Below, in pieces: positions 10,033 through 48,319 of a stretch of DNA of 58,475 bases. Source of the stretch: a virus (taxonomy: Duplodnaviria > Caudoviricetes); the IMG/VR virus record IMGVR_UViG_3300009158_003990, positions 1-58,475 of that record. One strand, written 5' to 3'. Below the pieces are notes generated by a model, which was not told where the DNA came from, made no database searches, and saw only the letters and a list, made by a program, of their open reading frames with translations. The position numbers and the translations under genes were made by a program. Position 1 is the stretch's first letter. The number at the start of each line of letters is the position of its first letter.

Positions 10033-10978
10033 CTTTATATTAAACAATACTGATTCAATCATTGACTATGAAATACTAGGGTTTATTGAAAAAATAAAAA
10101 ATAAAGAAGACATTATTTTTACAACTTCTGGAACAACAGGAGAACCAAAAAAAATAATTCATAGCTATAAAACATTAGTTAAAAACATAAAAATTAAAGA
10201 TGAATTAAAAAATAGCGTTTGGGCATTGACATATGACTATACAAAAATGGCTGGATCACAAGTTATATTGCAGTCTTATTTAAACAAAGCAAAAATTGTT
10301 AACTTATTTAAAAAATCTTATGCAGAAACAATAAGTTTAATAAAAAAATATAATGTAACACACATATCTGCTACTCCTACTTTTTATAGATTATTAACAA
10401 ATAACATTTTTAAAAAAATAAAACAAGCAACAATAGGTGGTGAACCAGTAGATATTAATTTAATTAGTTATTTAAAAAAAATATTTCCTAATGCAAAAAT
10501 AACAAACATATACGCATCAACAGAGTTTGGAACATTGTTTAGTTCAAATGATTATTGTTTTACAATATCAGAAAAAAATGAGTCGTTTGTTAAAATAATA
10601 AAAGAAACAATTTTTATAAAAAACAATGATAAATGGTTTAATACAGAAGATAAAATTGAATGGGTAGAATCAAATAAGTTTAAAATAATTGGAAGAGATT
10701 CAAATATGATAAATGTAGGTGGAGTAAAAGTAAATCCAATAAAAATAGAATCTGCAATAAATAATTTACATTATGTTTTAAGCTCTTATGTTTATGGAAA
10801 AAGTAATTCAATAATGGGAACAATAGTAGTTGCAGATATTATTGTTAAAAAAAATGTAGATAAAAATATAATAAAAAAAGACTTAGAAAAAACTTTAAAT
10901 AGATATGAAATTCCTTTAAAAATAAATATAGTTGATAATATACATTTAACCTCTACTGGCAAGATAATAAGAAAATGA
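10025..10978 (+). CDS. ANL-family adenylate-forming enzyme (acyl-CoA/acyl-ACP synthetase), N-terminally compact
   Basis: FTTSGTTGEPK, YASTEFG, IIGR..MINVGG.KVNP, TSTGKI motifs. Confidence 0.85.
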   Translation: MNNFILNNTDSIIDYEILGFIEKIKNKEDIIFTTSGTTGEPKKIIHSYKTLVKNIKIKDELKNSVWALTYDYTKMAGSQVILQSYLNKAKIVNLFKKSYAETISLIKKYNVTHISATPTFYRLLTNNIFKKIKQATIGGEPVDINLISYLKKIFPNAKITNIYASTEFGTLFSSNDYCFTISEKNESFVKIIKETIFIKNNDKWFNTEDKIEWVESNKFKIIGRDSNMINVGGVKVNPIKIESAINNLHYVLSSYVYGKSNSIMGTIVVADIIVKKNVDKNIIKKDLEKTLNRYEIPLKINIVDNIHLTSTGKIIRK

Positions 10979-11697
10979 AAACAATTTTAGTTAGTGGAAT
11001 ATCGAAAGGATTAGGTTTAGTTTTATTGAAATCATTGTTATTGGATAACAATATTGTTTATGGAATAAGCAGAACTACTAATGATGAAATAGATGAATTA
11101 AAAAAAATATATCATAATAATTTTATTCATTTAATGCATGATTTAAGTTTATCTGAGTGTGTTGCAAAATTATCAACTCATATATTAAAAAATAAAATAA
11201 AATTTGATTGTTTTATTAACAATGCAGCGTTTGCATACGATGATATTATAACTAATGCAAGTTTAAGTAAATTAGAATACATGTTTAAAATAAATGTATT
11301 AAATCCAATTATGATTACAAAAATAATGCTTAGAAATTTTATTCTTAATAAAACAAAAGGAAACATAGTTCATATTTCAAGTATAAGTGTTCACACAGGA
11401 TATAAAGGACTGTCAATGTATGCAGCAACAAAAGGTGCTATCGAAGCATTTTCAAAAAATACAGCAAGAGAATGGGGAGAAATTGGAATTAGATCAAATT
11501 GTATTGTTGCTGGATTTATGGAAACAGAAATGAATAATAAATTAACTATTGATAAAAAAGAAAGAATATACAATAGAACATGTTTAAAAAAACAAACAAA
11601 TAAAAATTCAGTAGTTGATACTATTAAATTTTTAATTTCTAAAAATGCAAATTCAATTACTGGTCAAAATTTTTTTGTGGATTGTGGAACAATTTAA
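10975..11697 (+). CDS. fabG: SDR oxidoreductase, 3-oxoacyl-ACP reductase-like
   Basis: SGISKGLG, NNAA, ISS, YAATK (YxxxK), ITGQ..VDCG. Confidence 0.8.
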   Translation: MKTILVSGISKGLGLVLLKSLLLDNNIVYGISRTTNDEIDELKKIYHNNFIHLMHDLSLSECVAKLSTHILKNKIKFDCFINNAAFAYDDIITNASLSKLEYMFKINVLNPIMITKIMLRNFILNKTKGNIVHISSISVHTGYKGLSMYAATKGAIEAFSKNTAREWGEIGIRSNCIVAGFMETEMNNKLTIDKKERIYNRTCLKKQTNKNSVVDTIKFLISKNANSITGQNFFVDCGTI

Positions 11698-11708
11698 AAG
11701 GATTATAC

Positions 11709-12419
11709 ATGATACATGTTTACGGATTATGTTATAGAATACTAGACTATGCTAAAAAAACAGTTGATAGTTTAAGAGAAACTGCTTCTGAAGATTTTAA
11801 TTTAACATGTGTTGAAGGAAGATCATGCAACTCAGAATCTTTTTTAAGTTGGGGTAAACAATGTTTGGAAAATAAAAAAATTCAAAGATTTATAACATCA
11901 AGCACAAATTGTCGTGGGTATGGATTAAGTTGGGCTATTAAAAATTTTAAACCAGATGATTCAGAAGATTTTTTTATATTAACGGATTTAGATGTTTTAG
12001 TTCCAAAAAATATAGATTGGATAAAAGAAGTAAGGGAAACAATGAAAAACAATGTTATATCTGGATTTACTTTAAATAACAAGAATTATGTTTATCCAAA
12101 TTCTAAATGGAACGAAAACGAAAACATTTCAAAAAAATTATTTAGCTTAATAATTATGTCTGTTAAAACAAAAGAATACTTTAAAGTTTATGAAAAAAAA
12201 TTAGTTAATTTAATAGATTCAGATATTATTTCAAATATGTCTAATTATGGAAAAAGAGATTTAATTGATTCTAAGTTATATCATCTTGGATGGGATGCAT
12301 GGAAAGACGATAAGGAATATTGGGAAAATAAAAAAAATAAAAATAACTGGAACTTAAAAAAAGACTATGATGATACAGATGAAGAGCCAATATTTAAGGT
12401 ATACACAAATGACAACTAA
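11709..12419 (+). CDS. GT-A fold glycosyltransferase-like protein
   Basis: FILTDLDV DxD motif; YHLGW. Confidence 0.55.
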   Translation: MIHVYGLCYRILDYAKKTVDSLRETASEDFNLTCVEGRSCNSESFLSWGKQCLENKKIQRFITSSTNCRGYGLSWAIKNFKPDDSEDFFILTDLDVLVPKNIDWIKEVRETMKNNVISGFTLNNKNYVYPNSKWNENENISKKLFSLIIMSVKTKEYFKVYEKKLVNLIDSDIISNMSNYGKRDLIDSKLYHLGWDAWKDDKEYWENKKNKNNWNLKKDYDDTDEEPIFKVYTNDN

Positions 12420-13023
12420 AGAATCGTTGGATCTTGTAAAAAAAATAACTCAAAAAATACCAAGCTTTCATCATCACTACCATGTTCTTTATGACATATC
12501 AAATCTTATTAAAAAAGAAAATATTAATTATGTTGAAATAGGTGCGTATGCTGGAGCATCAGCAGCATTAATGCTTCATAATCCAAAAGTAAATGTTATT
12601 TCTATAGACATTGGAGATCCAATAAGACAAGAAGATGTACACAACAACATTTCTATTTTTTTTGATTGTAATAATAAAAAAAGATTTGATTATATAGAAG
12701 GAAGTTCTCATGCAGAAGAAACAAAAATTGAACTTTTAAATAAAATTAAAGAAATAGATATTCTTTTTATTGATGGAGATCACCCTTATAATTCAGTTAT
12801 AAAAGATTTTGAAATTTATTCTTGTTTAGTAAATAAAAATGGGTATATAGTTTTTGATGATTATCATTGCAATACATGCACTGAAGTAAAACCAGCCGTA
12901 AATTTTATAGTTTCAAATTTAAAAAAAGATGAATTTGAAGTTATAGGTAGTTTGCCAAACACATTTAATGCTTTTCCAGAAAGTTTTAAATCAAGCAATT
13001 GTTTTGTGTTAAGAAAAAAATAA
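12409..13023 (+). CDS. class I SAM methyltransferase (Methyltransf_24-like)
   Basis: VEIGAYAGAS, ILFIDGDH.Y..V..D, GYIVFDDY. Confidence 0.85.
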   Translation: MTTKESLDLVKKITQKIPSFHHHYHVLYDISNLIKKENINYVEIGAYAGASAALMLHNPKVNVISIDIGDPIRQEDVHNNISIFFDCNNKKRFDYIEGSSHAEETKIELLNKIKEIDILFIDGDHPYNSVIKDFEIYSCLVNKNGYIVFDDYHCNTCTEVKPAVNFIVSNLKKDEFEVIGSLPNTFNAFPESFKSSNCFVLRKK

Positions 13024-13050: not shown

Positions 13051-13332
13051 ATGCAATATCTCTATGAGATTTGGTTAAAGATACATGATGAAAAAAGCAA
13101 ATATAAAGCATCTATAAATCTTAATGGAAGTTGTTGTATAGCTTTATGTGCTTCTTCAAATAAAGAAGCTATTGAAATTTTAGAAAACACATTTCTTTGT
13201 TGCGATACAAGACCTATTAAAAATAAAAGAAAAATAAAAGATTCGAGGTTGAAAGATGGTTGTTCTAAGTATATATTTCTCTTGCGTAAAGAAAGTATGA
13301 ATAGCTATAAACGAGATTGTGGTCATAAGTAA
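13051..13332 (+). CDS. hypothetical protein
   Basis: 93 aa ORF with GGGG RBS-like site. Confidence 0.45.
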   Translation: MQYLYEIWLKIHDEKSKYKASINLNGSCCIALCASSNKEAIEILENTFLCCDTRPIKNKRKIKDSRLKDGCSKYIFLLRKESMNSYKRDCGHK

Positions 13333-13620
13333 CTGGGTTATCAAATTCAATAACGGTTCTTTCCCAGTTCTTTCCCCGAAGCAACCACAACACCAGAACA
13401 CAGGTTCAAAGACTGCCATAGAGTAGCCAAACTCTTAACAGGTGGCACGAAAAGTTTAATTAAGAATCAACACTAAGATCGGAGTGACCCCTTCTCCGCT
13501 TAGACCTGATAGAGCAAAGCACAAAAATTCTTAATTGATGTCTTGTTTGGTAGAGTTTATAGCACACCGAAGGTAAACAAAGAACTCTGATGCTATGCTA
13601 TCAGGGTAAAGAAGGGGTAT
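13331..13620 (+). ncRNA. putative structured RNA / cis-regulatory leader
   Basis: Longest non-coding stretch in the window, with at least seven complementary segment pairs (see findings); family unassigned, strand assumed. Confidence 0.4.
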
Positions 13621-13625
13621 TTGTA

Positions 13626-13976
13626 ATGAGATTTAAAGCCGATATTGACCTTAAAAAATGGGGCAGTGAGGAAACAATCAAAGACCCATTAAGAGAAATA
13701 ATTTTGAAAATATTAAAAATGGATATTTTAAAAAAAACAAGCTGGCACTACCATTCTCAAAAAGAGTCTTATTTTTATATATTTTCTGGAGAGGTATCAA
13801 TACACATATCTGATGGCGATGACTTAAATTTGGCTCATATAGAGCTTCTAAAGCAAGGTGATTGTTTTTTTGTAGGTGCTAATAAAAGACACATGATAAC
13901 AGCTATGAAAGAAAGTGTATTACTTGAATCATCAAATTACGATGATCCAGTAGACAAAACTATAGTTCATTACTAG
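13626..13976 (+). CDS. cupin domain protein (mannose-6-P isomerase-like)
   Basis: KKWGSE, TSWHYH..KESYFYI.SG, GD.F.V....H.I.A....LLESS. Confidence 0.75.
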   Translation: MRFKADIDLKKWGSEETIKDPLREIILKILKMDILKKTSWHYHSQKESYFYIFSGEVSIHISDGDDLNLAHIELLKQGDCFFVGANKRHMITAMKESVLLESSNYDDPVDKTIVHY

Positions 13977-14238
13977 CAATATCACAAAAAATTTGAATAA
14001 CATTCTTTTCTATAAATCCACATGCGTTTAAACAATTTAAATTTTTACCAATCATCAATGTTATTTCTATAAACTCAGACTCAGATATATAACCAATACA
14101 ATAAGATTTTAATATTATTTTTTTAAAAAGTAAAAAGTCTTCTTTTGAAAAAATTACTGTATTAGAGTTGAGCAAATCAATTTTGTCTTTAAAATAAATC
14201 TTGAGTTTTCTTTTGCTTTCGCTTATTCTGTTTTTCAT
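13960..14238 (-). CDS. hypothetical protein
   Basis: Only sizeable ORF in the gap, divergent from GNAT gene. Confidence 0.45.
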   Translation of the reverse strand: MKNRISESKRKLKIYFKDKIDLLNSNTVIFSKEDFLLFKKIILKSYCIGYISESEFIEITLMIGKNLNCLNACGFIEKNVIQIFCDIASNEL

Positions 14239-14249
14239 GTTTCTATCTT

Positions 14250-14744
14250 ATGAGGTATGTTATGTCAAAAAAAACTAAGATTGATCCTACAATAAAACTT
14301 TTAATAAAAAGAAATCTTATAGAGGTTGTTGATATAGATAAAGCTTCTAGCTATATAAATGACCCCGATTTTGGATTAATCGAAAACGAATCTTCTTGGG
14401 ATTCATCTTCTTTTACAAGTTTTGTCAGAAAAAAGAACACATTCTCGTATGTTATTTATGAAAAAACTAAAATTGTTGGTTTTTTATTGATCGAATCTGA
14501 TCCAGATAGCACAAAAATTGAAAAACTAACGGTTCATCCTAAATATAGAAGAATGACTTTTGGTTCATTGCTATTAAATCACTTAATACAAAAGGCATTT
14601 AGTTCAAAAATAGTTGTTTATTGCAAAGAAAACGATAGTGACAGTATAGCTTTTTATAAAAACAAAAAATTTAAATCAAATCTTGTTAAGTCTCACTTTG
14701 GGAAAGATATAGATGCTGTAAGGTTTTCACTGGAGATAAAATGA
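14250..14744 (+). CDS. GNAT-family acetyltransferase (RimI-like)
   Basis: IVGFL, LTVHPKYRRMTFGS.LL, N..SIAFY...KF. Confidence 0.8.
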   Translation: MRYVMSKKTKIDPTIKLLIKRNLIEVVDIDKASSYINDPDFGLIENESSWDSSSFTSFVRKKNTFSYVIYEKTKIVGFLLIESDPDSTKIEKLTVHPKYRRMTFGSLLLNHLIQKAFSSKIVVYCKENDSDSIAFYKNKKFKSNLVKSHFGKDIDAVRFSLEIK

Positions 14745-14917
14745 AAGATAAAAATAAGCAATCTGTTAGTTGTCTTGGTTTTTGTGGTAAAAATTTTATG
14801 AGTATAGATCCTAAAACAAATAGAATTTGTAAAAAATGCAAAGAAAAGATGTATAATAAAAAGAACGAAATGGGCAAAAATTACTTTAATGAAAAAAAAA
14901 CAGAGATAAATGAATAA
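14741..14917 (+). CDS. small zinc-finger protein (not in ORF track)
   Basis: MKDKNKQSVSCLGFCGKNFMSIDPKTNRICKKCKEK...; ATGA overlap with upstream gene and overlap with downstream gene. Confidence 0.6.
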   Translation: MKDKNKQSVSCLGFCGKNFMSIDPKTNRICKKCKEKMYNKKNEMGKNYFNEKKTEINE

Positions 14918-15953
14918 ACCAAAAGTTGCACTTATAACACCATCATTAGGTATGGGTGGTGCAGAAAGATGGATAGTTACTCTTGCAAAATTCTTCAAAA
15001 GATTAGAACCTTATTTAATTTTAAATTTAAGTGGTCAAAGCGATTCAATTTTATTAGAAGAAGTTCCAAGCAAAACAAAAATTATATCTGGTCTTTATTT
15101 AAGTTCAGATAAAATCATAAATATTTTAAGCGAAGCAGATGCAATTATTTCTTGGTGTTTTAATTTAGACTTAAGATTAAAGGATAAATTAAAATGTCCA
15201 ACAATAGATGTTTCTCATAGTGACCCAACATGGGAAAACCACAAATCTTTGATTGATTACACATCAAAAAATTCAAAGTATCATGTTGGAGTAAGTAGGG
15301 TTGCTGCTTCAGCATATAAAAATAACAATTCAGATGTAATTTATAACGGAATAGATACAAAAAGACTTAAGGAAGTAAGAGGAAGAATTAAACAAAGAGA
15401 AGAATGGGATTGTGAAAATAACAAAGTAGTTATTTTTTTAAGCAGATTGTCAGAAGAAAAAAATCCTAAAATATTGCTAGATTGTTCTGATTTGTTTGAT
15501 GAAAGTTGGAAGTTTTTATTTGTTAATACTGGCTCTATAAAAAATTATTTTAATTCAATTAAAAAAAACAATATCAAAATTATAGAAAAAACAAAATATG
15601 TTGGAGATTATTATTCTGGTGCAGATGTAGTAGTTCTTCCTTCAGACATAGAAGGAATGCCATTAGTTTTATTAGAGTCTTGGTTTTGTGGTGTTCCTGT
15701 TGTAACGACTAGGTATGATTCTTATGTTGAATTAGAAAATATGCATGGGGAATTATGTTTGTCAACAGAAGTAAGACCAACAGCACTTGAATTTTCAAAT
15801 AAAATAAACCAAGCTTTTTATGAGGGCAGATGTTCTAAAAGAGTTATTCTTGCCAAAGATGTTGTGGAAAAAAATTATACTCATGAAACAATGATTAAAA
15901 ATTGGGAAGATTATGTGTTTTTAAAAATGAAAGAATGTAATGATACGCAATAA
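14910..15953 (+). CDS. GT4 glycosyltransferase
   Basis: GGAERW, VIYNGID, SRLSEEKN, PSDIEGMPLVLLESWFCGVPVV. Confidence 0.9.
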   Translation: MNKPKVALITPSLGMGGAERWIVTLAKFFKRLEPYLILNLSGQSDSILLEEVPSKTKIISGLYLSSDKIINILSEADAIISWCFNLDLRLKDKLKCPTIDVSHSDPTWENHKSLIDYTSKNSKYHVGVSRVAASAYKNNNSDVIYNGIDTKRLKEVRGRIKQREEWDCENNKVVIFLSRLSEEKNPKILLDCSDLFDESWKFLFVNTGSIKNYFNSIKKNNIKIIEKTKYVGDYYSGADVVVLPSDIEGMPLVLLESWFCGVPVVTTRYDSYVELENMHGELCLSTEVRPTALEFSNKINQAFYEGRCSKRVILAKDVVEKNYTHETMIKNWEDYVFLKMKECNDTQ

Positions 15954-16551
15954 CAAAAAAAAATGGATATATATAGGACCACCAAAAACTGGAAGCACAG
16001 CAGTATCTTATATACTGACAGATGGAAAATACAAAAAAAATTATATTGCCGAAAGTTTAAGTATTAATTTTGAAGGAAAAGAAATAAATGGTCAACATAC
16101 ACCTTGGCCTCCTAAAAAATTAAAAACTAAATACAACAATCATACAGTTTTTATAAGTGTAAGAAATCCTTTTTCTAGAATAGTTTCCCTTTATAATCAT
16201 TGGAAAAATGGAAAAAATTATGGTCGTGAATTATTATCAAAAGATAAAACGCTTGAAGAATTTATATATCTTGTTTTAAAAAAATCTCTTTCTAATAATG
16301 GATTTTTTCACACCACAATAACAGATTGGGTTTATAGATATGATTATTTTATAAAACAAGAAAATTTATACAATGATTTAAAAATGCTGAATATTCACTC
16401 TAATGATTTTATTATTCCTTTAATAAACGGAAAAATAAATTCGACAGATTACTGGAAAGAAGTACATAATAAAAAAACAATTGAGATGACAATTGAATGG
16501 GCAGAAAAAGATTTTTGTAATTTTGGATACAGTAAGGACATTAATGCTTAA
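15940..16551 (+). CDS. sulfotransferase family 2 protein
   Basis: 5'-PSB PPKTGSTAV and 3'-PB VRNPFSRIVSLY; DF..FGY. Confidence 0.8.
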   Translation: MIRNNKKKWIYIGPPKTGSTAVSYILTDGKYKKNYIAESLSINFEGKEINGQHTPWPPKKLKTKYNNHTVFISVRNPFSRIVSLYNHWKNGKNYGRELLSKDKTLEEFIYLVLKKSLSNNGFFHTTITDWVYRYDYFIKQENLYNDLKMLNIHSNDFIIPLINGKINSTDYWKEVHNKKTIEMTIEWAEKDFCNFGYSKDINA

Positions 16552-18876: not shown

Positions 18877-19950
18877 ATGTCAATGAACATAAATTATTTA
18901 GCACCAATCAATAAACTTGGTTATGGGGTTGTTGGAACAAACATATACAATGAACTTATTAAAAAAAATAATGTTTCATTGTTTCCAATTGGCCCAATAG
19001 AATGCGATGATGAAAATTCAGAAAAAATAAGGTCTGGATTAATTAATTCTTCGTCTTTTGATTATGATGCACCAAGCTTTAGAATTTGGCATCAATGGGA
19101 TATGGCTTTAAATGTAGGAAAAGGTAAAAAGTTTGGCCTTACATTTTTTGAAATGGATAGATTAAAAGAAAAAGAAATTCACAACTTAAATTTTTTAGAT
19201 AAAATATTTGTTTGTTCTGATTGGTCAAAAAAAATAATTGTGGATAGTGGAATAAGTGCCGATAAGGTTAAAGTTATAAATCTTGGTGTAGACAACTCTA
19301 TTTTTGATGAAAAAGAAATCGTTCCTTCTAAAACAACATATTTGTTAAATGTTGGAAAATGGGAAATAAGAAAGGGTCATGATCTAATAATAGATATTCT
19401 TCTTAAAGCATTTACTCCAGAAGATGATTTTAAATTAATAATGTGTTGTTCAAATCCTTTTTTAACTCAAGAAGAACAAAATCAATGGATTTCATTTTAC
19501 GAAAAAAGTCCATTTTTTGATAAAATAATTGTTTTAAAGAATAGACTTGAAACACAAAAAGAAGTTTTTGATATTATGAAAAAAAGTGACATAGGTATTT
19601 TTCCATATAGATCTGAGGCTTGGAATTTAGAGTTAGCTGAAATGCTTGCTCTTGGAAAAAACTGTATAGCAACAAATTATTCTGGACCTACTCAATATGC
19701 TTTAGAATCAGGTTGCGAATTAATAGATCCAGATGGGATTGAATTAGCAAACGATGGCAAATGGTTTGATGGTAGTGGCAATTGGGCAAAATTAAATGAG
19801 TCTTATGTTGAAAGATTTGCCAATAAACTTAAGTTGTTACATCAAAAAAAACAGTCTGGAGAATTGATTAAAAATACTAAAGGTATAGAGTTTTTTAAAA
19901 AACATACATGGGAATCTATTGCCTCATATATATCTGAGGAAATTAAATAA
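18877..19950 (+). CDS. GT4-like glycosyltransferase
   Basis: NLGVD, VGKWEIRKG.D, FPYRSEAWNLELAEMLALG..CIATNYSG. Confidence 0.85.
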   Translation: MSMNINYLAPINKLGYGVVGTNIYNELIKKNNVSLFPIGPIECDDENSEKIRSGLINSSSFDYDAPSFRIWHQWDMALNVGKGKKFGLTFFEMDRLKEKEIHNLNFLDKIFVCSDWSKKIIVDSGISADKVKVINLGVDNSIFDEKEIVPSKTTYLLNVGKWEIRKGHDLIIDILLKAFTPEDDFKLIMCCSNPFLTQEEQNQWISFYEKSPFFDKIIVLKNRLETQKEVFDIMKKSDIGIFPYRSEAWNLELAEMLALGKNCIATNYSGPTQYALESGCELIDPDGIELANDGKWFDGSGNWAKLNESYVERFANKLKLLHQKKQSGELIKNTKGIEFFKKHTWESIASYISEEIK

Positions 19951-33289: not shown

Positions 33290-33718
33290 ATGGCAAAAAA
33301 TAGATCAGATAGTAGCAAATACGAATCTAGGCATGGTGGTGGGTGGATTACTTCTGCTCAGTTTCTTGCAGAGGTTATGTGTGAAAGATACGCCAAAAAA
33401 AATGGCGAAGAATTAGTTTACAAGTTTTGGAATGTTGATTTTTGGAAAAAAGAATTTTTCAAACAACTTGCATTTGCTAAAAAATTGCTTCTTGTTTACG
33501 AACCCCATATTATTTCAAAGGCACTAAGGTCTAAAGAAGGCAAATCTGTTTTTTCTTTAGGTGCTCCTTGGTTAAAGAAAATAATTGAACTGGAACAAAG
33601 AAAGTTTAAATTAGCAGATACTAGCAAGGTTGTTGATACAACTGAGTTGCCAATTAGAAAACCATTCCAATCATCCAAATCTCTAATGAAAAAATTAAAG
33701 GACTTAGATAATGAGTGA
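33290..33718 (+). CDS. hypothetical protein
   Basis: ORF upstream of recA. Confidence 0.6.
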   Translation: MAKNRSDSSKYESRHGGGWITSAQFLAEVMCERYAKKNGEELVYKFWNVDFWKKEFFKQLAFAKKLLLVYEPHIISKALRSKEGKSVFSLGAPWLKKIIELEQRKFKLADTSKVVDTTELPIRKPFQSSKSLMKKLKDLDNE

Positions 33719-35732
33719 AAACTTAGATAAGATTTTAAAAGAAGTAGATAAACAATATGGCAAAGGTGTAGCTATAAATGCAAACGAATTACTGGATGAA
33801 GAAAAGTATGTAATACCATTATCTCCTGCATTAAATTTGGGTCTTCATGGTGGAATACCAGAAGGCTCTTGGATTACATGCTCTGGTCATCCAAAAAGTG
33901 GTAAGGCACAACCAATATCTGCAATTGTTTATACAAACAAAGGCCCAAAAAGAATTGGCGATATAAAAGTTGGAGATATAGTTTGTTGTCCAAGCGGAAC
34001 ATTATCTCCTGTTGTTGGTGTTTTTCCTCAAGGCGTAAAAGATGTTTATACAATAACATTTTCTGATGGTTCTACGGCAGAATGTGAGGCAGATCACCTT
34101 TGGAACATAAAAACAAGAGAGCAAAAGTCTTATAAAACTGTAATGCTAAAAGATTTTATGGATAAAATATTTATAGGAAAAAGCACTAAAGCTAAATATT
34201 CAATACCAATAACTAATCCAGTAAATTTTGATGCTGCACAACTACCAATAGACCCATTTGCTTTTGGCGTTTTATTGACGATTGGATTTTTTAAGAAAAA
34301 AATTACAGCATTGATTGAAGATGAAAATCTACTTACTAAATTTTGTGACATTATGGATAAGTATGCATTTTCTTATTCTACTAAAGATAAACAATTGACT
34401 CTTGATATTAAAGACGAAATCAAAAAATTAAATCTCTTTAATAAAAAAACATGTGAAAAATTTATACCTTCAATTTATTTATACAACTCAATAGAAAATA
34501 GGTTTTTATTACTTAAAGGCATACTGGCTTTTGCTCATATAACTAAAAAAGAAACTCCTATTATTACAGTTTCATCAAAACAATTTGCTGAAGACTTTAG
34601 GTTGTTGGTTCAATCTCTTGGTGGAATATGTTTGATATCTAGACATAAAAACAATGAAGACAATTTTATTTACTATTGCTCCATTATTATTAAAGATAAA
34701 AAAGGGCTGTTTGAATTTAAAAAAGAAAAGTTTAACAAAATTGACATCAAAAACAATCTTTCAAGAAAAATAATTTCTGTAGTAAAATCAAGACAAGAGA
34801 AATGTGTTTGTATATCTATTAAGAATAAGAATGGTCTATACTTAACAGACAACTTTATCGTTACTCATAACACGCTAACTGCATTATCTTTTGCTGCACA
34901 ATGTCAAAAGCCAGAACACGGAGCTAGACATGTGTATTATCTAAACATTGAGGGTAGACTTAAGCCTATGAATTTAAGAGGTATAGCTGGTTTAAATTTA
35001 GATAAAATGACAATCTATAGATCTACTCAAGATAAAATTCTTTCCGCAAAGGATTACTTAAATTTGGCGTTTAAAGCCATTAATACACACCCAGGAAGTT
35101 TAATTATCATAGATAGTGTTTCTGCTCTGTGTGATGAGAAGGAAATGGATCAAGGTATTGGCTATGAGAATAGAGGGGCTGGTAATAAGCTTTTTGCTGG
35201 TTTTTGTAGGCAAGCAGCCAATATAGTTCCAGTACAAAACTGTATGGTTTGGGCGATTATGCACTTAACACAATCTCAAGGAATGTATGGTGGTTATACA
35301 GAAAAAGGTTCTAGAACATTGCAATATCAAGCAGATGTGCAAATGAGAGTGAAGTCTGATAAACCTTGGAGTGTTGGTGGAGAAGGAAAAGACAAACAAA
35401 TTGGTCAACAGGTTCATTGGATAATTGAGTCTTGTTCTTTAGGATCTCCTGGAATGGAAGTTGATAGCTTTATAAGATATGGAATTGGTATAGATAATAC
35501 ATACGAGGCAATTAATTTGGGTTGTCAGCTTGGACTTATTGATAAGGCTGGTGCTTGGATGACATTAAACTTTATGGAAAGACACTTGAAACTATTAAAG
35601 TCTGAAGTTTGGGATGATCCCACTATTAAATTAGTTAAAACTCAAGGTGCAGAAAAAATGTATAAATTATTGTTAGAAAATCCAAAATGGATAACCGCTT
35701 TAGAAAAAGAAATTAAGGCGATTATATCGTGA
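33711..35732 (+). CDS. recA: RecA/UvsX-like recombinase, intein-containing
   Basis: SPALN..L.GGIPEG, Walker A SGHPKSGK|T interrupted by intein, Walker B LIIIDSVSAL, YG.GID. Confidence 0.88.
   Translation: MSENLDKILKEVDKQYGKGVAINANELLDEEKYVIPLSPALNLGLHGGIPEGSWITCSGHPKSGKAQPISAIVYTNKGPKRIGDIKVGDIVCCPSGTLSPVVGVFPQGVKDVYTITFSDGSTAECEADHLWNIKTREQKSYKTVMLKDFMDKIFIGKSTKAKYSIPITNPVNFDAAQLPIDPFAFGVLLTIGFFKKKITALIEDENLLTKFCDIMDKYAFSYSTKDKQLTLDIKDEIKKLNLFNKKTCEKFIPSIYLYNSIENRFLLLKGILAFAHITKKETPIITVSSKQFAEDFRLLVQSLGGICLISRHKNNEDNFIYYCSIIIKDKKGLFEFKKEKFNKIDIKNNLSRKIISVVKSRQEKCVCISIKNKNGLYLTDNFIVTHNTLTALSFAAQCQKPEHGARHVYYLNIEGRLKPMNLRGIAGLNLDKMTIYRSTQDKILSAKDYLNLAFKAINTHPGSLIIIDSVSALCDEKEMDQGIGYENRGAGNKLFAGFCRQAANIVPVQNCMVWAIMHLTQSQGMYGGYTEKGSRTLQYQADVQMRVKSDKPWSVGGEGKDKQIGQQVHWIIESCSLGSPGMEVDSFIRYGIGIDNTYEAINLGCQLGLIDKAGAWMTLNFMERHLKLLKSEVWDDPTIKLVKTQGAEKMYKLLLENPKWITALEKEIKAIIS
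33906..34871 (+). mobile_element. intein (322 aa, Ala1, class-3-like) with degenerate LAGLIDADG domain
   Basis: Starts AQP after GK, ends IVTHN before Thr; block B ADHLW, block F CVCISI, block G THN. Confidence 0.88.
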
Positions 35733-41979: not shown

Positions 41980-43896
41980 ATGAATTGGACACCATTACAT
42001 TGCCATACGCATTATAGCCTATTAGATGCACTTAGTAAGCCAGATATTCTGGCAAAAAGATGCTTTGATCTTGGATATAAGTCGTGTGCCATAACTGATC
42101 ACGGAACTATTTCTGGATGCATATCTTTTGCTAAAGCATGTTTGTCCAAAAAAATAAAGCCAATATTGGGTTGCGAATTTTACATGTGTAAAGAAGCATC
42201 ATCTATTCAAACTAAAGATAATTCTGATTTAACGCATTTGTGTGTTCTTTCTAAAAACTTGATTGGTTGGAAAAATTTAATAAGTCTTTCTTCTAAATCA
42301 AATTCTCCAGAGTGTTTTCAGCATAAACCAAGGCTGCATATAAGCGATTTTTTAGGTAATACAGATGGATTAATTGCTTTTTCTGGACATATTGGTAGCG
42401 AATTAGCAAATTGTTTGTTTGCAGATTTTAAAGAGGCATATTCAAGAACTGAGTATGGTGAAATAAAAGAATTACTTAAGCCAGATTGGTTAGATTGTGC
42501 CATTAAAGTTTGTTCACAATATGTTGATGTATTTGGAACAGACAATTTCTTTATAGAAATACAGCTTTTTGATAAAGAAAACATACCAGCATCAATAGTA
42601 ATTGCAGAATGTCTTCGTGAAATATCAAAAAAAACAGGCATTAAAAAGATAGCAACTCCAGATGTTCATTATGTTCTTGCCGAAGATGCATCAGATCAAA
42701 GAGTATTGCTTTGTTCTTTAATGGAGGCAACACTTAAAAATATTAGAGATAAAATTCAAAAAAGTGGTGATTTTGATCTTTCTGTTTTTTTTAAGTCTAA
42801 TAAGTATTATCTTCCTTCTCTTGAAGAGATTGTGGCTTTACATGAAAAAGATGAAATAGACAATTGTCAATTAATTGATAGTATGTGTGAAAATTATTCA
42901 ATGATTAAAGAGCCATCTATTCCAAACTTTGATTGTCCAAATAAGCTAAGTCAAATTTCTTATCTAAGACAGTTGTGCAGAGAGGGTTGGAATAAAAAGT
43001 TTTCTGAAATAGGATCAAAAACAGAGCAATACAAAATATATACAGAAAGAATTGCTTATGAGTTAAATGTTATAGATAAGTCTGGACTTTCTGGCTATTT
43101 CTTGATTGTTCAAGATTATTGTAACTGGGCAAAATCAAAAAATTGGCTTGTTGGTCCAGGAAGAGGATCTGGTGCTGGATGCATGATTTCTTACCTTTTG
43201 GGAATAACAGATGTAGACCCAATAAAACATGGGCTTGTTTTTGAAAGATTTTATAATGCTGGAAGAAATACTTCTGGTAGAGTTAGCTTGCCAGATATTG
43301 ATTGTGATTTTCCAATAACAAAAAGAGATCTTGTTGTTGAATACATTCGATCTAAATATGGGGATGGTCATGTTAGTCAAATGATTACATTTAGTAGAAT
43401 GCAAGGCAGAGGCTCATTGAAAGATGTATTAAGGGCACACGGTTTTTCTTTTGAGGAAAGCAATAGAATAACAAAGCATATTCCTGATGAGTCTGAGATA
43501 TCTGAACAATTGCAGGAAATGAGAGATGAAGATGGCGATTCTTCAATAATAAGGTGGGCTTTAGAAAATATTCCTGATAAATTATCAGAGTATTGTAAAA
43601 TAGATGAAAACGGAGAGATAACAGGAAAATTAGCAAAAGAATTTATGCAAGCAATAAGATTGGAAGGAACAAAAAGAAGTCAAGGAAAACATGCTGCTGG
43701 CATAATTATTAGCGACTTACAAATGGGTCAAATATGCCCAATGATTTTTGATAAAAAATCAAAGCAGTCTATAGCTGGTCTTGAAATGTCAGATTTAGAG
43801 TCTATAGGTTTAGTTAAGTTTGATATACTTGGAGTTGCTGTTTTAGATAAAATTATGGGGTGCATAAACTTTTTAAAAGGCAAAACAAATGAATGA
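41980..43896 (+). CDS. dnaE: DNA polymerase III alpha, N-terminal part (PHP + catalytic palm)
   Basis: HCHTHYSLLD, TDH, DVHY, GPGRGSGAG, FERF, PDIDCDF, GKHAAG, KFDILG. Confidence 0.92.
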   Translation: MNWTPLHCHTHYSLLDALSKPDILAKRCFDLGYKSCAITDHGTISGCISFAKACLSKKIKPILGCEFYMCKEASSIQTKDNSDLTHLCVLSKNLIGWKNLISLSSKSNSPECFQHKPRLHISDFLGNTDGLIAFSGHIGSELANCLFADFKEAYSRTEYGEIKELLKPDWLDCAIKVCSQYVDVFGTDNFFIEIQLFDKENIPASIVIAECLREISKKTGIKKIATPDVHYVLAEDASDQRVLLCSLMEATLKNIRDKIQKSGDFDLSVFFKSNKYYLPSLEEIVALHEKDEIDNCQLIDSMCENYSMIKEPSIPNFDCPNKLSQISYLRQLCREGWNKKFSEIGSKTEQYKIYTERIAYELNVIDKSGLSGYFLIVQDYCNWAKSKNWLVGPGRGSGAGCMISYLLGITDVDPIKHGLVFERFYNAGRNTSGRVSLPDIDCDFPITKRDLVVEYIRSKYGDGHVSQMITFSRMQGRGSLKDVLRAHGFSFEESNRITKHIPDESEISEQLQEMRDEDGDSSIIRWALENIPDKLSEYCKIDENGEITGKLAKEFMQAIRLEGTKRSQGKHAAGIIISDLQMGQICPMIFDKKSKQSIAGLEMSDLESIGLVKFDILGVAVLDKIMGCINFLKGKTNE

Positions 43897-44167
43897 CAAC
43901 TTTGAGGAAATATCAATTATTACAAAACTAGTAAGTCAACAGATAGCACTATTGGATTCTTTGGCTGAATGCAATTCTTCAAAAAAAGAACTCATTAAAC
44001 AAGCAAATAAGATATTAAAATCTGTTGCAATATATCATGGTGGAAGTTTGTTTTTAAATAAAGAATTTTTAGATTCTGCTGAAGACTCTGATGTAGAATT
44101 AAATATAATTCAAGATAAAGAAGGTTCTGTAGAATTAAAAATTAAGGATGCAAATAATGAAGAGTAA
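43889..44167 (+). CDS. hypothetical protein between dnaE halves
   Basis: Overlaps both neighbours. Confidence 0.55.
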   Translation: MNDNFEEISIITKLVSQQIALLDSLAECNSSKKELIKQANKILKSVAIYHGGSLFLNKEFLDSAEDSDVELNIIQDKEGSVELKIKDANNEE

Positions 44168-44795
44168 TACAATTATTGTATTTGATTTTGAAACAGGATC
44201 TTTAGATACACAAACATGTGAGGTTATACAAGTTGCAGCAAAAGCAATAAATAGAAAAACCTTGCTTCCTATTCCAGATGCAGTTTTTAATAGTTTAATA
44301 AAGCCAAGAGACTTTAATAACTTGCAAGATTCTGCTTTGGCAGTAAATAAAAAAACAAAAGAAGAATTAGCTTTAGCACCAGAAATAAGCGTTGTTTGGA
44401 ATAGGCTTATTGATTTTATTTCAAGGTTTTCTATTGGCAAAAGCAATATAATGGCTCCAGTTCCAGCGGGTAAAAACATTCGTCATTTTGATATGCCAAT
44501 TTTTGAAAGAGTATGTCGTGAGCTTGGTTATACAGACAAAGATAAAAAACAAACATATTTTAATAATCGTAGCATGTTTGATTTAGATGAAATAATGCTT
44601 TTGTGGTTTGAAAATAGTGATGATATGCCAAATATGAAGATGGATACAATCCGAGATCATTTTGGTATGTCAAAAGCAAATGCTCATGATGCATTAGTTG
44701 ATGTTGAGCAAACTGGAGATTTAATTATCCATTTTTTAAAATTGCATAGATCAATATACCCAAAAGTAAAATTTAAAGACTCATTCAAGAAATAA
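44157..44795 (+). CDS. DEDDh 3'-5' exonuclease (DnaQ/epsilon-like)
   Basis: ExoI VFDFETG, ExoII GKNI..FD, ExoIII AHDALVDV. Confidence 0.88.
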   Translation: MKSNTIIVFDFETGSLDTQTCEVIQVAAKAINRKTLLPIPDAVFNSLIKPRDFNNLQDSALAVNKKTKEELALAPEISVVWNRLIDFISRFSIGKSNIMAPVPAGKNIRHFDMPIFERVCRELGYTDKDKKQTYFNNRSMFDLDEIMLLWFENSDDMPNMKMDTIRDHFGMSKANAHDALVDVEQTGDLIIHFLKLHRSIYPKVKFKDSFKK

Positions 44796-44799
44796 TAAT

Positions 44800-46425
44800 A
44801 TGACAAAAAAATATCAGTTCTCATGTGGTTGCAGTTTTCCAATTATTGGTGAGCCTTTATCAAAAGACTCTTTGCCATTAATGGAAGTGGATGCAACAAA
44901 ACTTCCTTCTTGTGAAAGTGCTTGGAACATTTTTGCAAGAGGTGACACAAAAGGAATTTTTCAATTAGAATCAGATCTTGGTAAACAATGGTCTAAAAAA
45001 TTAAGACCAAAAACAGTTGAGCATCTTACTGCTTTAGGTGCATTAATTCGCCCTGGAGCATTGCGTTCTGTTGATGATAAAGGCGTTAGTATGACAGCAC
45101 ACTATTGCAGGATTGTTAATGGAGAAGAACAAGTTTCTTCTTATCATCCTGTCGTTGACGAAGCCCTTAAATCTACATATGGATCACTTGTTTTTCAAGA
45201 ACAAGCTATGGAGCTTTCTAAGGTTGTTGCTGGATTTACGCTACAAGAAGCAGACATTCTTCGTAAGGCAATGGGTAAAAAATCATCAAGCGAAATGGCT
45301 AAATGCAAAAAGTTATTTATTGATGGTTCTAAAAAAATGAATGTTGTTTCTGAAATTCAAGCAGAAGAAATATTTGGTTGGATTGAACAAAGTCAAAAAT
45401 ACTCATTTAATAAAAGCCATGCTTGTTCATATGGCTTGCTTACATACAATACGGCATATTTAAAAAGCCATTTTCCTGTTCAGTTTTTTACAAGTTGGTT
45501 ATTCTATGCAAAAGATAAGGCAGACAGTCTTTTAGAAATATCTGATCTTATTGATGAAGCTAAAAAGTTTAATGTGGACATTGAATTACCAGACATAACT
45601 GTATTAAATAGTAATTTTTATACAAATGGAAAAACTATATGGTTTGGTATTACTGACATTAAAGGCATTGGAATGTCGCAGTTTGAAAAAATAAAAAAAT
45701 CTATACAAAATTACCCAACAAAAATAAAAAGTTGGGAAGAATTTGTTATTAAGCTTTCTGATGATATGCCAACTTCAAGTTTGGAAAAACTTATATCGGT
45801 TGGTGCTTTTAGAAAATATGGAAGTAATAGGCAGAAGCTTTTAGCTGATCTTAACTGTTGGACACAACTTACAGATAAAGAAAGGTCTTGGATAAAAGAA
45901 AATGTTGAAATTACAAATATTGCAGATATGGTTTTAAAGTCAGCAAAAACAAAAAAAGATGGCGGTGCGTGTTGTATTTCTAAGCGTGTTGACATACTTA
46001 CAAGTTTGGCAAATAGTATAATAAATCCACCTTCTCCTTTGGTTGATATTCCTTCTTGGGTTATTTGGATAGAAAAACAGTCATTAGGCATTGCTTTGAC
46101 ATATAATGCTACAGATTCATGCGATACTAGTAGTTCAAATACAACATGTAAAGAATACTTAGATGGAAAAAGTGGATATATGGTTTTTGGTGTTGAAATA
46201 AGAAGGTGTAAAGAAGTTGTTACAAAGGCTGGAAAAACACCAGGATCAAAAATGTGTTTTCTTTCAGTATCTGATCCAACAGGAAAAATAGACGATGTTA
46301 TCTGTTTTCCAAATCCGTACAAAGAAATAGGTTCTTTGTTGAAAGAGGGAAACACAGTCTTGATTCAAGCAGAACGAGACAAAAAAAGTGAATCTCTTTT
46401 GGTTAAAAAAGCTTTTCAAATTTAG
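44800..46425 (+). CDS. dnaE: DNA polymerase III alpha, C-terminal part (fingers, HhH, OB)
   Basis: GDTKGIFQLES, ALIRPG, TYG.LVFQEQ, AD.LRKAMGKK, YSFNKSHA.SY, IKGIG, M.F....D.TG.I....F. Confidence 0.92.
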   Translation: MTKKYQFSCGCSFPIIGEPLSKDSLPLMEVDATKLPSCESAWNIFARGDTKGIFQLESDLGKQWSKKLRPKTVEHLTALGALIRPGALRSVDDKGVSMTAHYCRIVNGEEQVSSYHPVVDEALKSTYGSLVFQEQAMELSKVVAGFTLQEADILRKAMGKKSSSEMAKCKKLFIDGSKKMNVVSEIQAEEIFGWIEQSQKYSFNKSHACSYGLLTYNTAYLKSHFPVQFFTSWLFYAKDKADSLLEISDLIDEAKKFNVDIELPDITVLNSNFYTNGKTIWFGITDIKGIGMSQFEKIKKSIQNYPTKIKSWEEFVIKLSDDMPTSSLEKLISVGAFRKYGSNRQKLLADLNCWTQLTDKERSWIKENVEITNIADMVLKSAKTKKDGGACCISKRVDILTSLANSIINPPSPLVDIPSWVIWIEKQSLGIALTYNATDSCDTSSSNTTCKEYLDGKSGYMVFGVEIRRCKEVVTKAGKTPGSKMCFLSVSDPTGKIDDVICFPNPYKEIGSLLKEGNTVLIQAERDKKSESLLVKKAFQI

Positions 46426-46818: not shown

Positions 46819-48318
46819 ATGTCAAAAAAAAGAATATTGTTATGCGGTGAATCAACATCAATAAGTTCTGGTTATGCAAATTATGGATTGCAGATCATGA
46901 ACAGGCTACACGAAACTAACGAATTTGAGCTTGGGGAAATAGCTGCATTTCCAAAAAACCCAAATGCTCATTTAGATGTTCCTTGGGTTGTTTACTCAAG
47001 AGATAAAAGTGGAAATCCATTAAAAGATCCGAAAGATATTTTTGAAAGTGTTATTTATGACTTTAAACCAGATATTGTTTGGTCTTTTAGAGATCCTTGG
47101 GTAGATGACTTTATAGGTTTATCTCCATTTAAAAAAAAGTATCATTGGGCTTATATGCCAACCATTGATGCTGTGCCTCTAGATCCTCATTGGATTTATG
47201 CTATTTCAAAAGCTGATTCTGTTTTTACATATTCCGATTGGGCGTTAGAAATACTTAGAAAAAATTATCCAAATATAAACGCTATATCTTCAGCTTCTCC
47301 TGCTGGAGATGATATTTTTGTTGTTGAAAAAGACAAAAGAAAATTTAAAGAAAAAAATGGAATTAATCCAGACTGCTTAATTATAGGCACAGTAATGAGG
47401 AATCAAAGAAGAAAGCTTTATCCAGATCTTTTTGATGCTTTTGAAATGCTTTTAAAGCAAGCCCCAAAAGAAATGTCTTCAAGGTTAATTCTTTATGTTC
47501 ATACAACATATCCTGATCTTGGTTGGGATATACCTAAACTAATATCTGAAAGACCAAGTATTTCCAACAAAGTTTTTTTCAACTATGTTTGTAGTTCATG
47601 TTCTAGAATTTCTATTCTAAATTTTAGTGGTTCATTAATTGGTTGCAACTACTGTAAATCTGATACATGTATTTTTCCTACTACTAAAAATGGGGTAAAA
47701 AGAGAATCTATGCTGGCGGTGTATAGCTTAATGGATCTATATGTTCAATATTCTTGTGCAGAAGGATTTGGTATGCCATTAGTTGAAGCTGGATCTTGTG
47801 GTGTTCCTGTTTGTGCCACAGACTATAGTGCAATGTCAGATATAGTGAGAAAACTTGATGGATATCCTATAAAAGTACAAAGAATGTTCTATGAACCAGA
47901 AACGCACAGAAAATTAGCTCTTCCAGACAATCAAAATTTTGTTGATATTTGTATTAAACATTTTCAACAACCAGAAACGATTAGAAAATACAAAAGCCTA
48001 AAAATATCTAATCTAACAAAACAAAAATATAATTACGATGATGTTGCAAAAAAACTTTCAAAGCATTTTAATACTATACCTAAAACAAATTCTTGGGAAT
48101 TACCAAAAAATATTTTAGATATTCCAGAATACGAAGAAAAAAGTTCTTCATCTGATTTTTTAAAAAAAATACTTGGACAAATATATAAAGATGATGATTT
48201 TTTGTTTTTAAAATATTTAAAAATTCTTAATTACAGTATGGCAAGTAGGAAATCTGTTTACGATGAGGTTGTTGAAAAAATAAATGAATATAATAATCTA
48301 GAACTAGAAAGAAAATAA
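46819..48318 (+). CDS. GT4-like glycosyltransferase with zinc-ribbon insertion
   Basis: SGYA.Y, MRNQRRK..PDL, CSSC..CNYC, AEGFGMPLVEAGSCGVP. Confidence 0.85.
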   Translation: MSKKRILLCGESTSISSGYANYGLQIMNRLHETNEFELGEIAAFPKNPNAHLDVPWVVYSRDKSGNPLKDPKDIFESVIYDFKPDIVWSFRDPWVDDFIGLSPFKKKYHWAYMPTIDAVPLDPHWIYAISKADSVFTYSDWALEILRKNYPNINAISSASPAGDDIFVVEKDKRKFKEKNGINPDCLIIGTVMRNQRRKLYPDLFDAFEMLLKQAPKEMSSRLILYVHTTYPDLGWDIPKLISERPSISNKVFFNYVCSSCSRISILNFSGSLIGCNYCKSDTCIFPTTKNGVKRESMLAVYSLMDLYVQYSCAEGFGMPLVEAGSCGVPVCATDYSAMSDIVRKLDGYPIKVQRMFYEPETHRKLALPDNQNFVDICIKHFQQPETIRKYKSLKISNLTKQKYNYDDVAKKLSKHFNTIPKTNSWELPKNILDIPEYEEKSSSSDFLKKILGQIYKDDDFLFLKYLKILNYSMASRKSVYDEVVEKINEYNNLELERK

Positions 48319-48319
48319 T

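Follow-up and report, generated by a model that had tools for sequence, protein, structure and literature searches.

A conserved structured RNA with two pseudoknots behind a small basic protein gene in an uncultured phage lineage

The present study concerns a non-coding stretch in the IMG/VR virus record IMGVR_UViG_3300009158_003990 (Duplodnaviria; Caudoviricetes), of which all 58,475 bp, estimated to be 35% complete, were analysed and are referred to as the window. Comparative pair counts indicate that positions 13325..13618 are a conserved structured RNA of ~294 nucleotides (nt) on the plus strand, represented by a model, R1, of 294 positions. The 5′ edge of this element was placed at the onset of conservation among relatives and the 3′ edge at the last pseudoknot base, and these edges are not mapped transcript ends. 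Upstream lies an open reading frame (ORF) for a small basic, cysteine-rich protein (13051..13332, plus strand; 93 amino acids, aa; isoelectric point 9.2), the stop codon of which falls inside the 5′ end of the RNA. Downstream lies a cupin gene (13626..13976, plus strand; 116 aa; Cupin_2 with an E value of 3.3e-06 and 27.1 bits against a cut-off of 27.2). The reading that we prefer, to which we give roughly an even chance, is that the RNA is a module co-inherited and probably co-expressed with the small basic protein, occlusion of the cupin ribosome-binding site (RBS) being secondary.

The element was found in 34 contigs, namely the window, 30 IMG/VR contigs and 3 contigs present only in a metagenome collection. 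The alignment consisted of the 15 distinct full-length sequences; exact duplicates were excluded, as were three copies truncated by contig ends (L012/L060 and L044). RNAalifold was run on these 15 sequences, after which the nested structure was fixed, model R1 was built, the sequences were realigned and both pseudoknots were counted. RNAalifold predicted 64 pairs, 24 of them with compensatory changes, and independently gave two long-range helices, A and B, that had been missed by a first-pass annotation made from the window sequence alone. In the final structure of 68 pairs, 98.4% of the 1020 cells (68 pairs x 15 sequences) were paired. Compensatory changes on both sides were present in 22 of the 68 pairs, compared to 7.3 ± 1.8 in 500 shuffles, none of which (0/500) reached 22, and only 0-6 compensatory pairs were obtained when the partners were slid by 1-3 columns. 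Related sequences can beat shuffles without any structure, and more weight therefore belongs to the slid control and to the number of distinct pair types in each helix. The pairs do covary among homologues, and the first-pass annotation had named a lack of such covariation as grounds for rejecting its proposal. Furthermore, the 1020 cells include 14 G-U and 4 A-C combinations, and a local 3′ hairpin described below adds 15 G-U. Because G-U outnumber A-C and the minus strand would make the G-U pairs mismatches, the plus strand appears to be the folded strand despite the folding energy of the minus strand.

The individual helices, all on the plus strand, were counted after the register of L046 had been moved by one column near the 3′ end. 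Hairpin P1 (13327..13372; 13327-29/13370-72 and 13331-37/13363-69) has a conserved 25-nt loop and is paired in 150/150 cells, with one pair swapping between G-C and C-G (2/15 versus 13/15 sequences). The central domain is closed by helix A (13392-95 with 13548-51; ACCA/UGGU), which is paired in 60/60 cells and in which both end pairs change from A-U to G-C in L046. In helix B (13409-13 with 13540-44; AAGAC/GUCUU), paired in 75/75 cells, one pair changes from A-U to G-C in 3/15 sequences. Hairpin P2 (13396-99/13404-07) is paired in 60/60 cells, all 4/4 pairs are compensatory, and at least four different stems occur. P3, a two-part hairpin with the loop AGCCAA (13414-18/13443-47 and 13420-24/13431-35), is invariant in 15/15 sequences, so that it yields no covariation evidence for or against itself. 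The long hairpin P4 (13456-66/13528-38) is paired in 161/165 cells with 8/11 pairs compensatory, and the L039 and L046 stems are essentially different. It encloses P4b (13473-77/13499-503; 3/5 pairs compensatory) and P4c (13481-84/13494-97; 1/4 pairs compensatory). Many unpaired stretches are also invariant among the homologues.

Two pseudoknots involve the 3′ tail. In pseudoknot 1 (PK1), the 5′ strand ACCCCUU in the P4c loop (13487..13493) pairs with the 3′ strand AAGGGGU (13612..13618), which is also a Shine-Dalgarno-like tract 8 nt before the cupin ATG. This helix is paired in 102/105 cells, and at its middle pair 11 sequences have C-G, while the other 4 (L015, L039, L047 and L046) have A-U. 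The first-pass annotation had proposed a long-range helix onto the purine tract before the cupin start, and this helix is real, with a change from C-G to A-U in 4/15 sequences. In pseudoknot 2 (PK2), CCUGAUAG in the P4 internal loop (13505..13512) pairs with 13598-13605. After correction of the L046 register, 117/120 cells are paired, and one U-A changes to A-U in L046.

All six pairings on which the first-pass annotation was built are present in the window at the positions it gave. AACTGGG (13331-37) pairs with CCCAGTT (13363-69); TGCCA (13414-18) with TGGCA (13443-47), enclosing AGAGT (13420-24) and ACTCT (13431-35); and AATTAAGAAT (13458-67) with ATTCTTAATT (13527-36), enclosing CTAAG/CTTAG and (C)GGAG/CTCC(G). 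In addition, ATAGCA (13559-64) is complementary to TGCTAT (13591-96), ACCCCTTCT (13487-95) to AGAAGGGGT (13610-18), and CCTGATAG (13505-12) to CTATCAGG (13598-605). Across the homologues five of the six were kept, four of them with compensatory changes. The ATAGCA/TGCTAT helix was rejected, as 2/6 of its pairs are broken in 3/15 sequences (L039, L047 and L046); this count was made in the overlapping 13596-601 register, while the register originally proposed was judged by eye.

Several other candidate helices were rejected as well. From the shallow first alignment RNAalifold paired CCCC 13374-76 with the tail GGGG; L039 and L046, however, have not kept the CCCC tract, and where G is replaced by U in the tail, the matching change is found in the P4c loop and not at CCCC 13374-76. 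AGAGU 13552-56/ACUCU 13584-88 is paired in 62/75 cells and absent from L039, L047 and L046, and the ACC/GGU hairpin 13566-68/13572-74 (39/45 cells) is kept in the close group only. Judged by eye, the pairing of the P3 loop GCCAAAC with GUUUGGU 13545-51, which competes with the covarying helix A, and that of the P1 loop GUUCUUU with AAAGAAC 13579-85 each fail in L046 and/or L015. No single fold holds in all clades for 13552-13586, the stretch separating helix A from the local 3′ hairpin, and the minimum-free-energy (MFE) folds differ by clade.

The description of the region as non-coding also stood. No plausible reading frame was found in 13333-13625, and the ORFs overlapping the region measure only 33-79 aa. 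A protein-coding sequence was rejected as an explanation of the conservation: the substitutions are paired across helices and do not lie at third codon positions, and the 79-aa minus-strand ORF (13180-13419) undergoes non-synonymous changes among the relatives. The GC content is 0.37-0.41 in the element and mostly 0.17-0.34 in the flanks.

The whole window gave 0 matches at the gathering threshold to the 4227 models of Rfam 15, which cover riboswitches, ribozymes, GOLLD, ROOL, HEARO, manA, wcaG, group I and II introns, RNase P, 6S and tmRNA. At E<=10 over 13200-13750, three chance-level rows were obtained, all on the minus strand and all to eukaryotic microRNA or long non-coding RNA models, scoring 11.7-20.1 bits where the cut-offs are 40-90. 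A single spurious row, outside the element, came from four divergent member loci, and ARAGORN found 0 tRNA or tmRNA genes in the window. The earlier statement that no known family could be matched is in line with these scans, both for the window and for its divergent members, and the pair counts together with the missing Rfam match bear out its suggestion of an unrecognised structured RNA. A literature search found no description of the element either. Since neither an Rfam match nor a published description was found, we treat it as an undescribed family of orphan structured phage RNA.

The relatives were collected in several ways. In two cupin relatives the non-coding stretch is nearly identical and the flanks differ, and the differences fall in complementary pairs. 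DNA-pattern scans of viral contigs yielded 12 loci and then 2 more. A pattern scan of the metagenome collection yielded 18 loci, 6 true and 12 by chance, and three of the six are absent from IMG/VR. The decisive query was the upstream small ORF (13051-13332), which found 26 viral loci; nhmmer located the element directly behind the ORF in 26/26 of them. This search added three much more divergent groups (L036/37; L039-45 with L047/48; and L046). A P3-pattern scan of the viral contigs gave 37 loci, of which 12 came from new contigs (4 true, of the L039 type, and 8 by chance), and a second small-ORF scan returned the same 30 viral contigs and none new. The copies L069-L074 were taken as equal to L039 from an identical bit score; their first base beyond the element is unlike that of L039. 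The window and L039/L046 are ~70% identical over the element, yet 1006/1020 cells pair. Covariance-model searches showed a single copy per genome in 5/5 relatives, including a complete genome of 141,809 bp, and one copy in the window. A blastn search of 50,697 phage records gave no match to the element, and the first pattern gave 0 loci in a set of one genome per prokaryote species. A second pattern gave at least 120 prokaryote loci; among the matches listed none carries the element, and nhmmer gave 4 partial matches there, of at most 44 positions.

The position of the element relative to its neighbours was compared in the 30 viral contigs, of which 28 are full length and 2 are cut by the contig end. 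In 30/30 contigs encoding the small ORF, the element starts between -8 and +2 nt from the end of the stop codon of this ORF. The same ORF-RNA arrangement was seen in 12 loci that were inspected, including 2 of the 3 metagenome-only contigs, and the genes upstream of the small ORF differ in at least 8 ways among the relatives. The downstream side is more variable. The cupin ATG lies 8 nt after the last pseudoknot base in 14/28 full-length viral loci, and a cupin gene also follows the RNA in the window and in the metagenome-only contigs L034 and L035; L027, whose element sequence equals that of L034, has its downstream gene outside the count. In L015/L038 a ~95-nt spacer is followed by a GNAT acetyltransferase gene. 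In 13 loci (L039, L047 and L046 types) the next gene is a convergent, conserved 92-aa ORF on the minus strand, which abuts the RNA in L046.

These positions bear on whether the element is a leader of the gene behind it. A riboswitch-like or protein-responsive cis-regulatory leader would control the downstream genes, cupin in the window and a GNAT cassette elsewhere. We consider this unlikely, even though it is attractive in several respects. The 3′ strand of PK1 is the Shine-Dalgarno-like tract 8 nt before the cupin ATG in 14/28 full-length viral loci and in the window, where GAAGGGG (13611-17) stands at a normal distance, 8 nt, before the ATG at 13626 and resembles purine tracts that precede many window genes. 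Moreover, two mutually exclusive helices, PK2 and the local 3′ hairpin, are both conserved, the whole of P3 and many unpaired stretches are invariant as in aptamer cores, and the setting is a sugar-modification island (SDR, methyltransferase, cupin, GNAT, GT4 and sulfotransferase genes). However, a riboswitch belongs in the 5′ leader of the gene that it controls, and a plus-strand start was found within 8 nt in 14/28 loci. The other 14 lack one at the end of the RNA, 13 of them with a convergent neighbour, and in L015/L038 the gap measures ~95 nt. The tail AAG(G/U)GG, its pairing partner and the covariation of PK1 persist in loci without cupin, and the A-U form of PK1 occurs only in the cupin-less lineages L015, L039, L047 and L046. 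It is the stop of the upstream ORF, and not any downstream start, to which the element is anchored. With ~295 nt and five or more helices it is bigger than most single aptamers, and the riboswitch models of Rfam were unmatched even at E<=10.

Since the RNA is present with or without cupin, control of cupin is not its core task. A leader over the cupin RBS, as the first-pass annotation had it, does not hold as the general function, because a cupin gene follows in only 14/28 full-length viral loci. Its alternative suggestion of a stand-alone phage non-coding RNA fits better, and the invariant partner is the upstream small ORF, of which the first-pass annotation made no mention. PK1, when formed, should occlude the cupin RBS in this window. 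The greatest distance in RNA similarity is shown by the L039 and L046 groups, which lack cupin. On these similarities, the use of the tail as the Shine-Dalgarno tract of cupin looks like a later co-option.

The close tie to the ORF stop can also be read as that of a purely cis-acting 3′-untranslated-region domain of the small-ORF mRNA, serving as an exonuclease block, a processing mark or a transcription stop before the convergent gene. This would agree with the start of the element at the ORF stop in 30/30 loci and with its 3′ tail being tucked into two pseudoknots; in 13 loci, moreover, the element fills the whole gap to the convergent ORF, and a classical terminator is lacking. We nevertheless hold such a role to be improbable. 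It is rare for a stabiliser or terminator to require ~295 nt in which loops and junctions are invariant, the cupin loci would require transcription through the RNA or a restart because the cupin Shine-Dalgarno tract lies inside it, and the ORF allele has been swapped in some loci while the RNA stays 94.6% identical.

The 3′ region contains an alternative local hairpin (13587..13604, plus strand; 13587-92/13599-604, CUGAUG with UAUCAG), which is paired in 89/90 cells. As this hairpin shares its 3′ strand with PK2, the two are mutually exclusive. Specifically, column 13600 pairs with 13510 in PK2 and with 13591 in the hairpin, and in L046 all three positions have changed with both pairings kept. 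Such a joint change is the expectation for two mutually exclusive functional conformations, and a two-state fold is plausible on this comparative evidence. Of the competing helices foreseen in the first-pass annotation, the pseudoknot and a local hairpin competing with the second long-range helix stood, with the joint covariation confined to a single lineage.

Under our preferred reading of an RNA module tied to the small basic protein, the RNA would be made on the small-ORF transcript or from a promoter inside the small ORF. It would act as a folded RNA itself, most plausibly by partnering the small basic protein or serving as its scaffold. In the fold established by the pair counts, P1 is followed by a central domain, closed by A and B and bearing P2, P3 and P4-P4b-P4c, and the 3′ tail runs back onto P4, contacting the apical loop through PK1 and the internal loop through PK2. 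The RNA could toggle between a closed state, with PK1 and PK2 formed, and an open state, where the PK2 3′ strand is instead engaged in the local hairpin 13587-92/13599-604. In cupin-bearing lineages, this window among them, the 3′ strand of PK1 doubles as the cupin Shine-Dalgarno tract; there the closed state should repress cupin translation and the open state relieve it, as a secondary, lineage-specific use.

In a bolder version, the element would be the first representative of a new class of phage RNA with a complex fold, a ribozyme or conformational-switch RNA forming a ribonucleoprotein (RNP) with the 93-aa protein, whose weak structural likenesses are all to rRNA-binding ribosomal chains, and acting in trans on a host or phage target during infection, with occlusion of the cupin RBS as a later co-option; we put this forward tentatively, as a possible but doubtful extension. 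A catalytic RNA, be it a ribozyme of a new class that processes itself or a degenerate element resembling an intron, seems very improbable to us. The multi-junction, doubly pseudoknotted fold with many invariant unpaired nucleotides would suit it, and architectural complexity of this kind is typical of ribozymes and riboswitches. However, no ribozyme or intron model of Rfam was matched, the element interrupts no gene, the flanking ORFs being separate and the downstream one replaceable, and the contigs of the RNA runs, as distinct from the reads, contain no joint. The helix order, with A and B nested and pseudoknots between tail and loops, is also not the P3-P7 pattern of group I. A group I intron was rejected outright: the flanking genes are separate, the frame and position in which the upstream ORF terminates vary, the gene downstream can be replaced and no Rfam intron model was matched.

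The small ORF encodes 90-93 aa among the relatives, with a pI of 9.2 and seven cysteines. Its family comprises 19 clusters in a database of 5.8 billion proteins, all of which are unannotated or implausibly auto-named. AlphaFold2, run with 23 sequences, gave a fold of three strands and three helices at a mean pLDDT (predicted local distance difference test) of 78.7, for which Foldseek found no match in the PDB at E<=0.001. In VIA-align the nine best rows for this fold were all ribosomal-subunit chains, at Z 4.0-4.7, which is below the noise level of the tool and serves as a lead only.

Regarding expression, seven sequencing runs, six of which are on record as RNA, hold a small share of the sequence words of 13051-13976. 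Metatranscriptomes from three studies have one contig each over the element (13310-13491, 13303-13475 and 13407-13583; 183-197 nt, depth 2.7-4.4). In a fourth, two contigs cover the small ORF, and the contigs overall measure 151-197 nt at a depth of ~3. These contigs are a weak hint that the element is expressed. The four metatranscriptomes have no contig over cupin or the other flanks, which is uninformative given the 85% likeness cut-off and the short contigs. A sigma-70-like site (13249-77; TTGAAA-17-TATATT, 10/12) is located inside the small ORF, ~50 nt before the RNA, and similar hexamers occur in the relatives. It was not taken as evidence of a promoter, as the hexamers coincide with invariant Leu and Tyr codons and the region has fewer such sites than shuffles.

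A number of observations weigh against the preferred reading. The first ground that the first-pass annotation had named for rejecting its proposal, a folding energy no better than that of dinucleotide-shuffled controls, formally applies: the MFE of the plus strand (-67.4 kcal/mol) is no better than that of 100 dinucleotide shuffles (-64.18 ± 5.09 kcal/mol; z -0.63; 29/100 as good), and the minus strand folds slightly better by energy (z -1.85; 6/100 shuffles as good). The case illustrates that a z-score from folding one sequence can overlook a structured RNA that is real and that comparison brings to light. The comparative data themselves call for some care: by the caveat of the counting tool, the shuffle control overstates significance for related sequences, and the family is narrow, with about five clades, so that many compensatory cells are inherited and not independent. 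The covariation of the switch comes from one lineage, L046, and in L036 an A·A mismatch interrupts the local hairpin. Besides the ORF-RNA pair, GNAT and a 58-aa ORF are invariant too, being present downstream in every full locus inspected. On the protein side, the small ORF belongs to no Pfam or PHROG family, even the best matches to its fold are weak (Z 4.3-4.7), and RNA binding by the protein is conjecture. The contigs from the RNA libraries are short and of low depth, carry neither strand nor ends and possibly represent DNA carry-over; promoter-like sites numbered 8 against 12.0 ± 3.9 expected, with 0 terminators.

On the same side of the balance are the separate histories of the ORF and the RNA. 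In L004-type loci the ORF allele is 43% identical (60% at the nucleotide level) and the RNA 94.6% identical, with a cupin gene that is 84% identical; in L036, the ORF and the RNA are both ~85% identical. The combination of 60% and 94.6% nucleotide identity in the same pair points to recombination at the ORF/RNA junction, and such incongruent histories weaken the case for a specific protein-RNA partnership in a tightly co-evolved RNP. The junction at 13323-13332, and its equivalents in L004-type loci, behaves like a recombination breakpoint.

Conceivably, the conserved stretch could be a DNA-level element that owes its conservation to something other than RNA structure, namely a recombination linker at the edge of a variable island or part of a replication or packaging signal. 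It marks the exact point at which a highly variable neighbourhood upstream gives way to a conserved cassette downstream, and the 60% versus 94.6% identity is breakpoint-like. We nevertheless regard a DNA-level function as highly unlikely, since 22/68 pairs are compensatory across nested and pseudoknotted helices, and the ratio of 14 G-U to 4 A-C, plus the 15 G-U of the local hairpin, is an RNA signature with a defined strand. In addition, no repeats or iterons were noticed in the sequences read.

The element resides in a plus-strand run of sugar-modification genes, and its neighbours are all on the plus strand but one. On the upstream side these are an SDR gene (10975-11697) and a methyltransferase gene (12367-13023), and further downstream follow a GNAT acetyltransferase (14250..14744), a GT4 gene (14910-15953) and a sulfotransferase gene (15940-16551). 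The exception is the conserved 92-aa minus-strand ORF (13960..14238), which abuts the 3′ end of the RNA in cupin-less lineages and in the window overlaps the 3′ end of cupin by 17 nt. Together with GNAT and the 58-aa ORF it forms a conserved cassette 3′ of the RNA (13960-14917; also in L004, L005, L036, L039 and L046). The 58-aa cassette ORF is Lys-rich with four cysteines (CxxxC...CxxC), and the gene after the cassette encodes, depending on the phage, a GT4 glycosyltransferase or a protein of 238 aa with an HNH motif. Glycosyltransferase genes (PHROG 2170-type and GT4) were found at 46819-49444, 18877-19950 and 14910-15953, and the sugar-modification repertoire as a whole (glycosyltransferases, sulfotransferase, SDR, methyltransferase) is unusually large for a phage fragment.

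Other genes of the window include those for ribonucleotide reductase, a DnaB-like helicase, a RecA-like protein and a DnaE-type polymerase. The polymerase finds only matches below 35% identity among the 50,697 deposited phage records, and the lineage is for this reason taken to be uncultured. The complete 141,809-bp relative that carries the same RNA element has direct terminal repeats, and the element is confined to this uncultured, ~142-kb AT-rich phage lineage of lake and apparently also other aquatic metagenomes. Two further observations concern the replication genes. The DnaE-type DNA polymerase III alpha is split over two ORFs within 41980-46425: the first (41980-43896) contains the PHP and NTPase/palm domains, the second (44800-46425) the finger, HhH and OB domains, and between them lie a 92-aa ORF (43889-44167) and an epsilon-like RNase_T exonuclease gene (44148-44795). 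This could be a natural split or an inserted cassette. A 673-aa protein (33711-35732) has RecA as its C-terminal half (residues 388-618), and its N-terminal ~390 residues have only P-loop-type PHROG matches (terminase large subunit, DnaC-like loader, primase); the protein is either a RecA in extended form or an unusual fusion.

Few RNAs combine several junctions with two long-range pseudoknots, and those that have been functionally solved are mostly ribozymes, riboswitches and RNP scaffolds. The element is a compact and well-delimited target for structure probing or cryo-EM, and it comes with a candidate small-protein partner. It also offers a natural experiment, the same RNA with and without a downstream gene using its tail as RBS.

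Among known RNAs, the manA and wcaG motifs of cyanophages and marine metagenomes are candidate cis-regulatory RNAs beside sugar and exopolysaccharide genes, including that for the cupin-fold mannose-6-phosphate isomerase. The element is likewise situated in a phage genome by sugar genes. However, it has no match to these motifs at E<=10 over 13200-13750, its size and helix pattern differ, and its downstream gene is variable. With pseudoknot riboswitches that sequester the Shine-Dalgarno tract, such as preQ1-II and SAM-II, it has in common, in this window, that the purine tract of the RBS is part of a pseudoknot helix, the formation of which should block initiation, and that an alternative hairpin competes with a neighbouring pseudoknot helix. 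It is 4-6 times larger than these riboswitches, has a multi-junction core and is anchored to an upstream ORF, and unlike them it keeps the knot and its covariation in the half of its loci without the gene behind. GOLLD, ROOL and HEARO are, like the element, complex phage non-coding RNAs that form GC-rich islands in AT-rich genomes and are backed by covariation. In contrast to these, the element is shorter, at ~295 nt, does not match their Rfam models, is not located beside tRNAs (0 in the window) and is in every case joined to the end of a gene for a small protein.

Fremin, Bhatt and Kyrpides (2023; PMC10690425) listed 10,006 candidate structured RNAs from IMG/VR and other viral sequences. Their catalogue, as described in the main text, resulted from a search of viral contigs, data of the kind used here, for intergenic elements that covary, and the present element may therefore be one of its unnamed candidates; as genomic contexts, cupin and acetyltransferase each have 0 occurrences in that main text. 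The T4 gene 32 pseudoknot, which that paper mentions (PMC10690425), is an example of a phage translational operator bound by a phage protein. Like such operators, the element places an RNA pseudoknot by a start codon and has a candidate basic protein effector. Phage operators, however, are short and lie 5′ of the gene of their binder, whereas the element is ~295 nt long and lies 3′ of the gene of its candidate protein.

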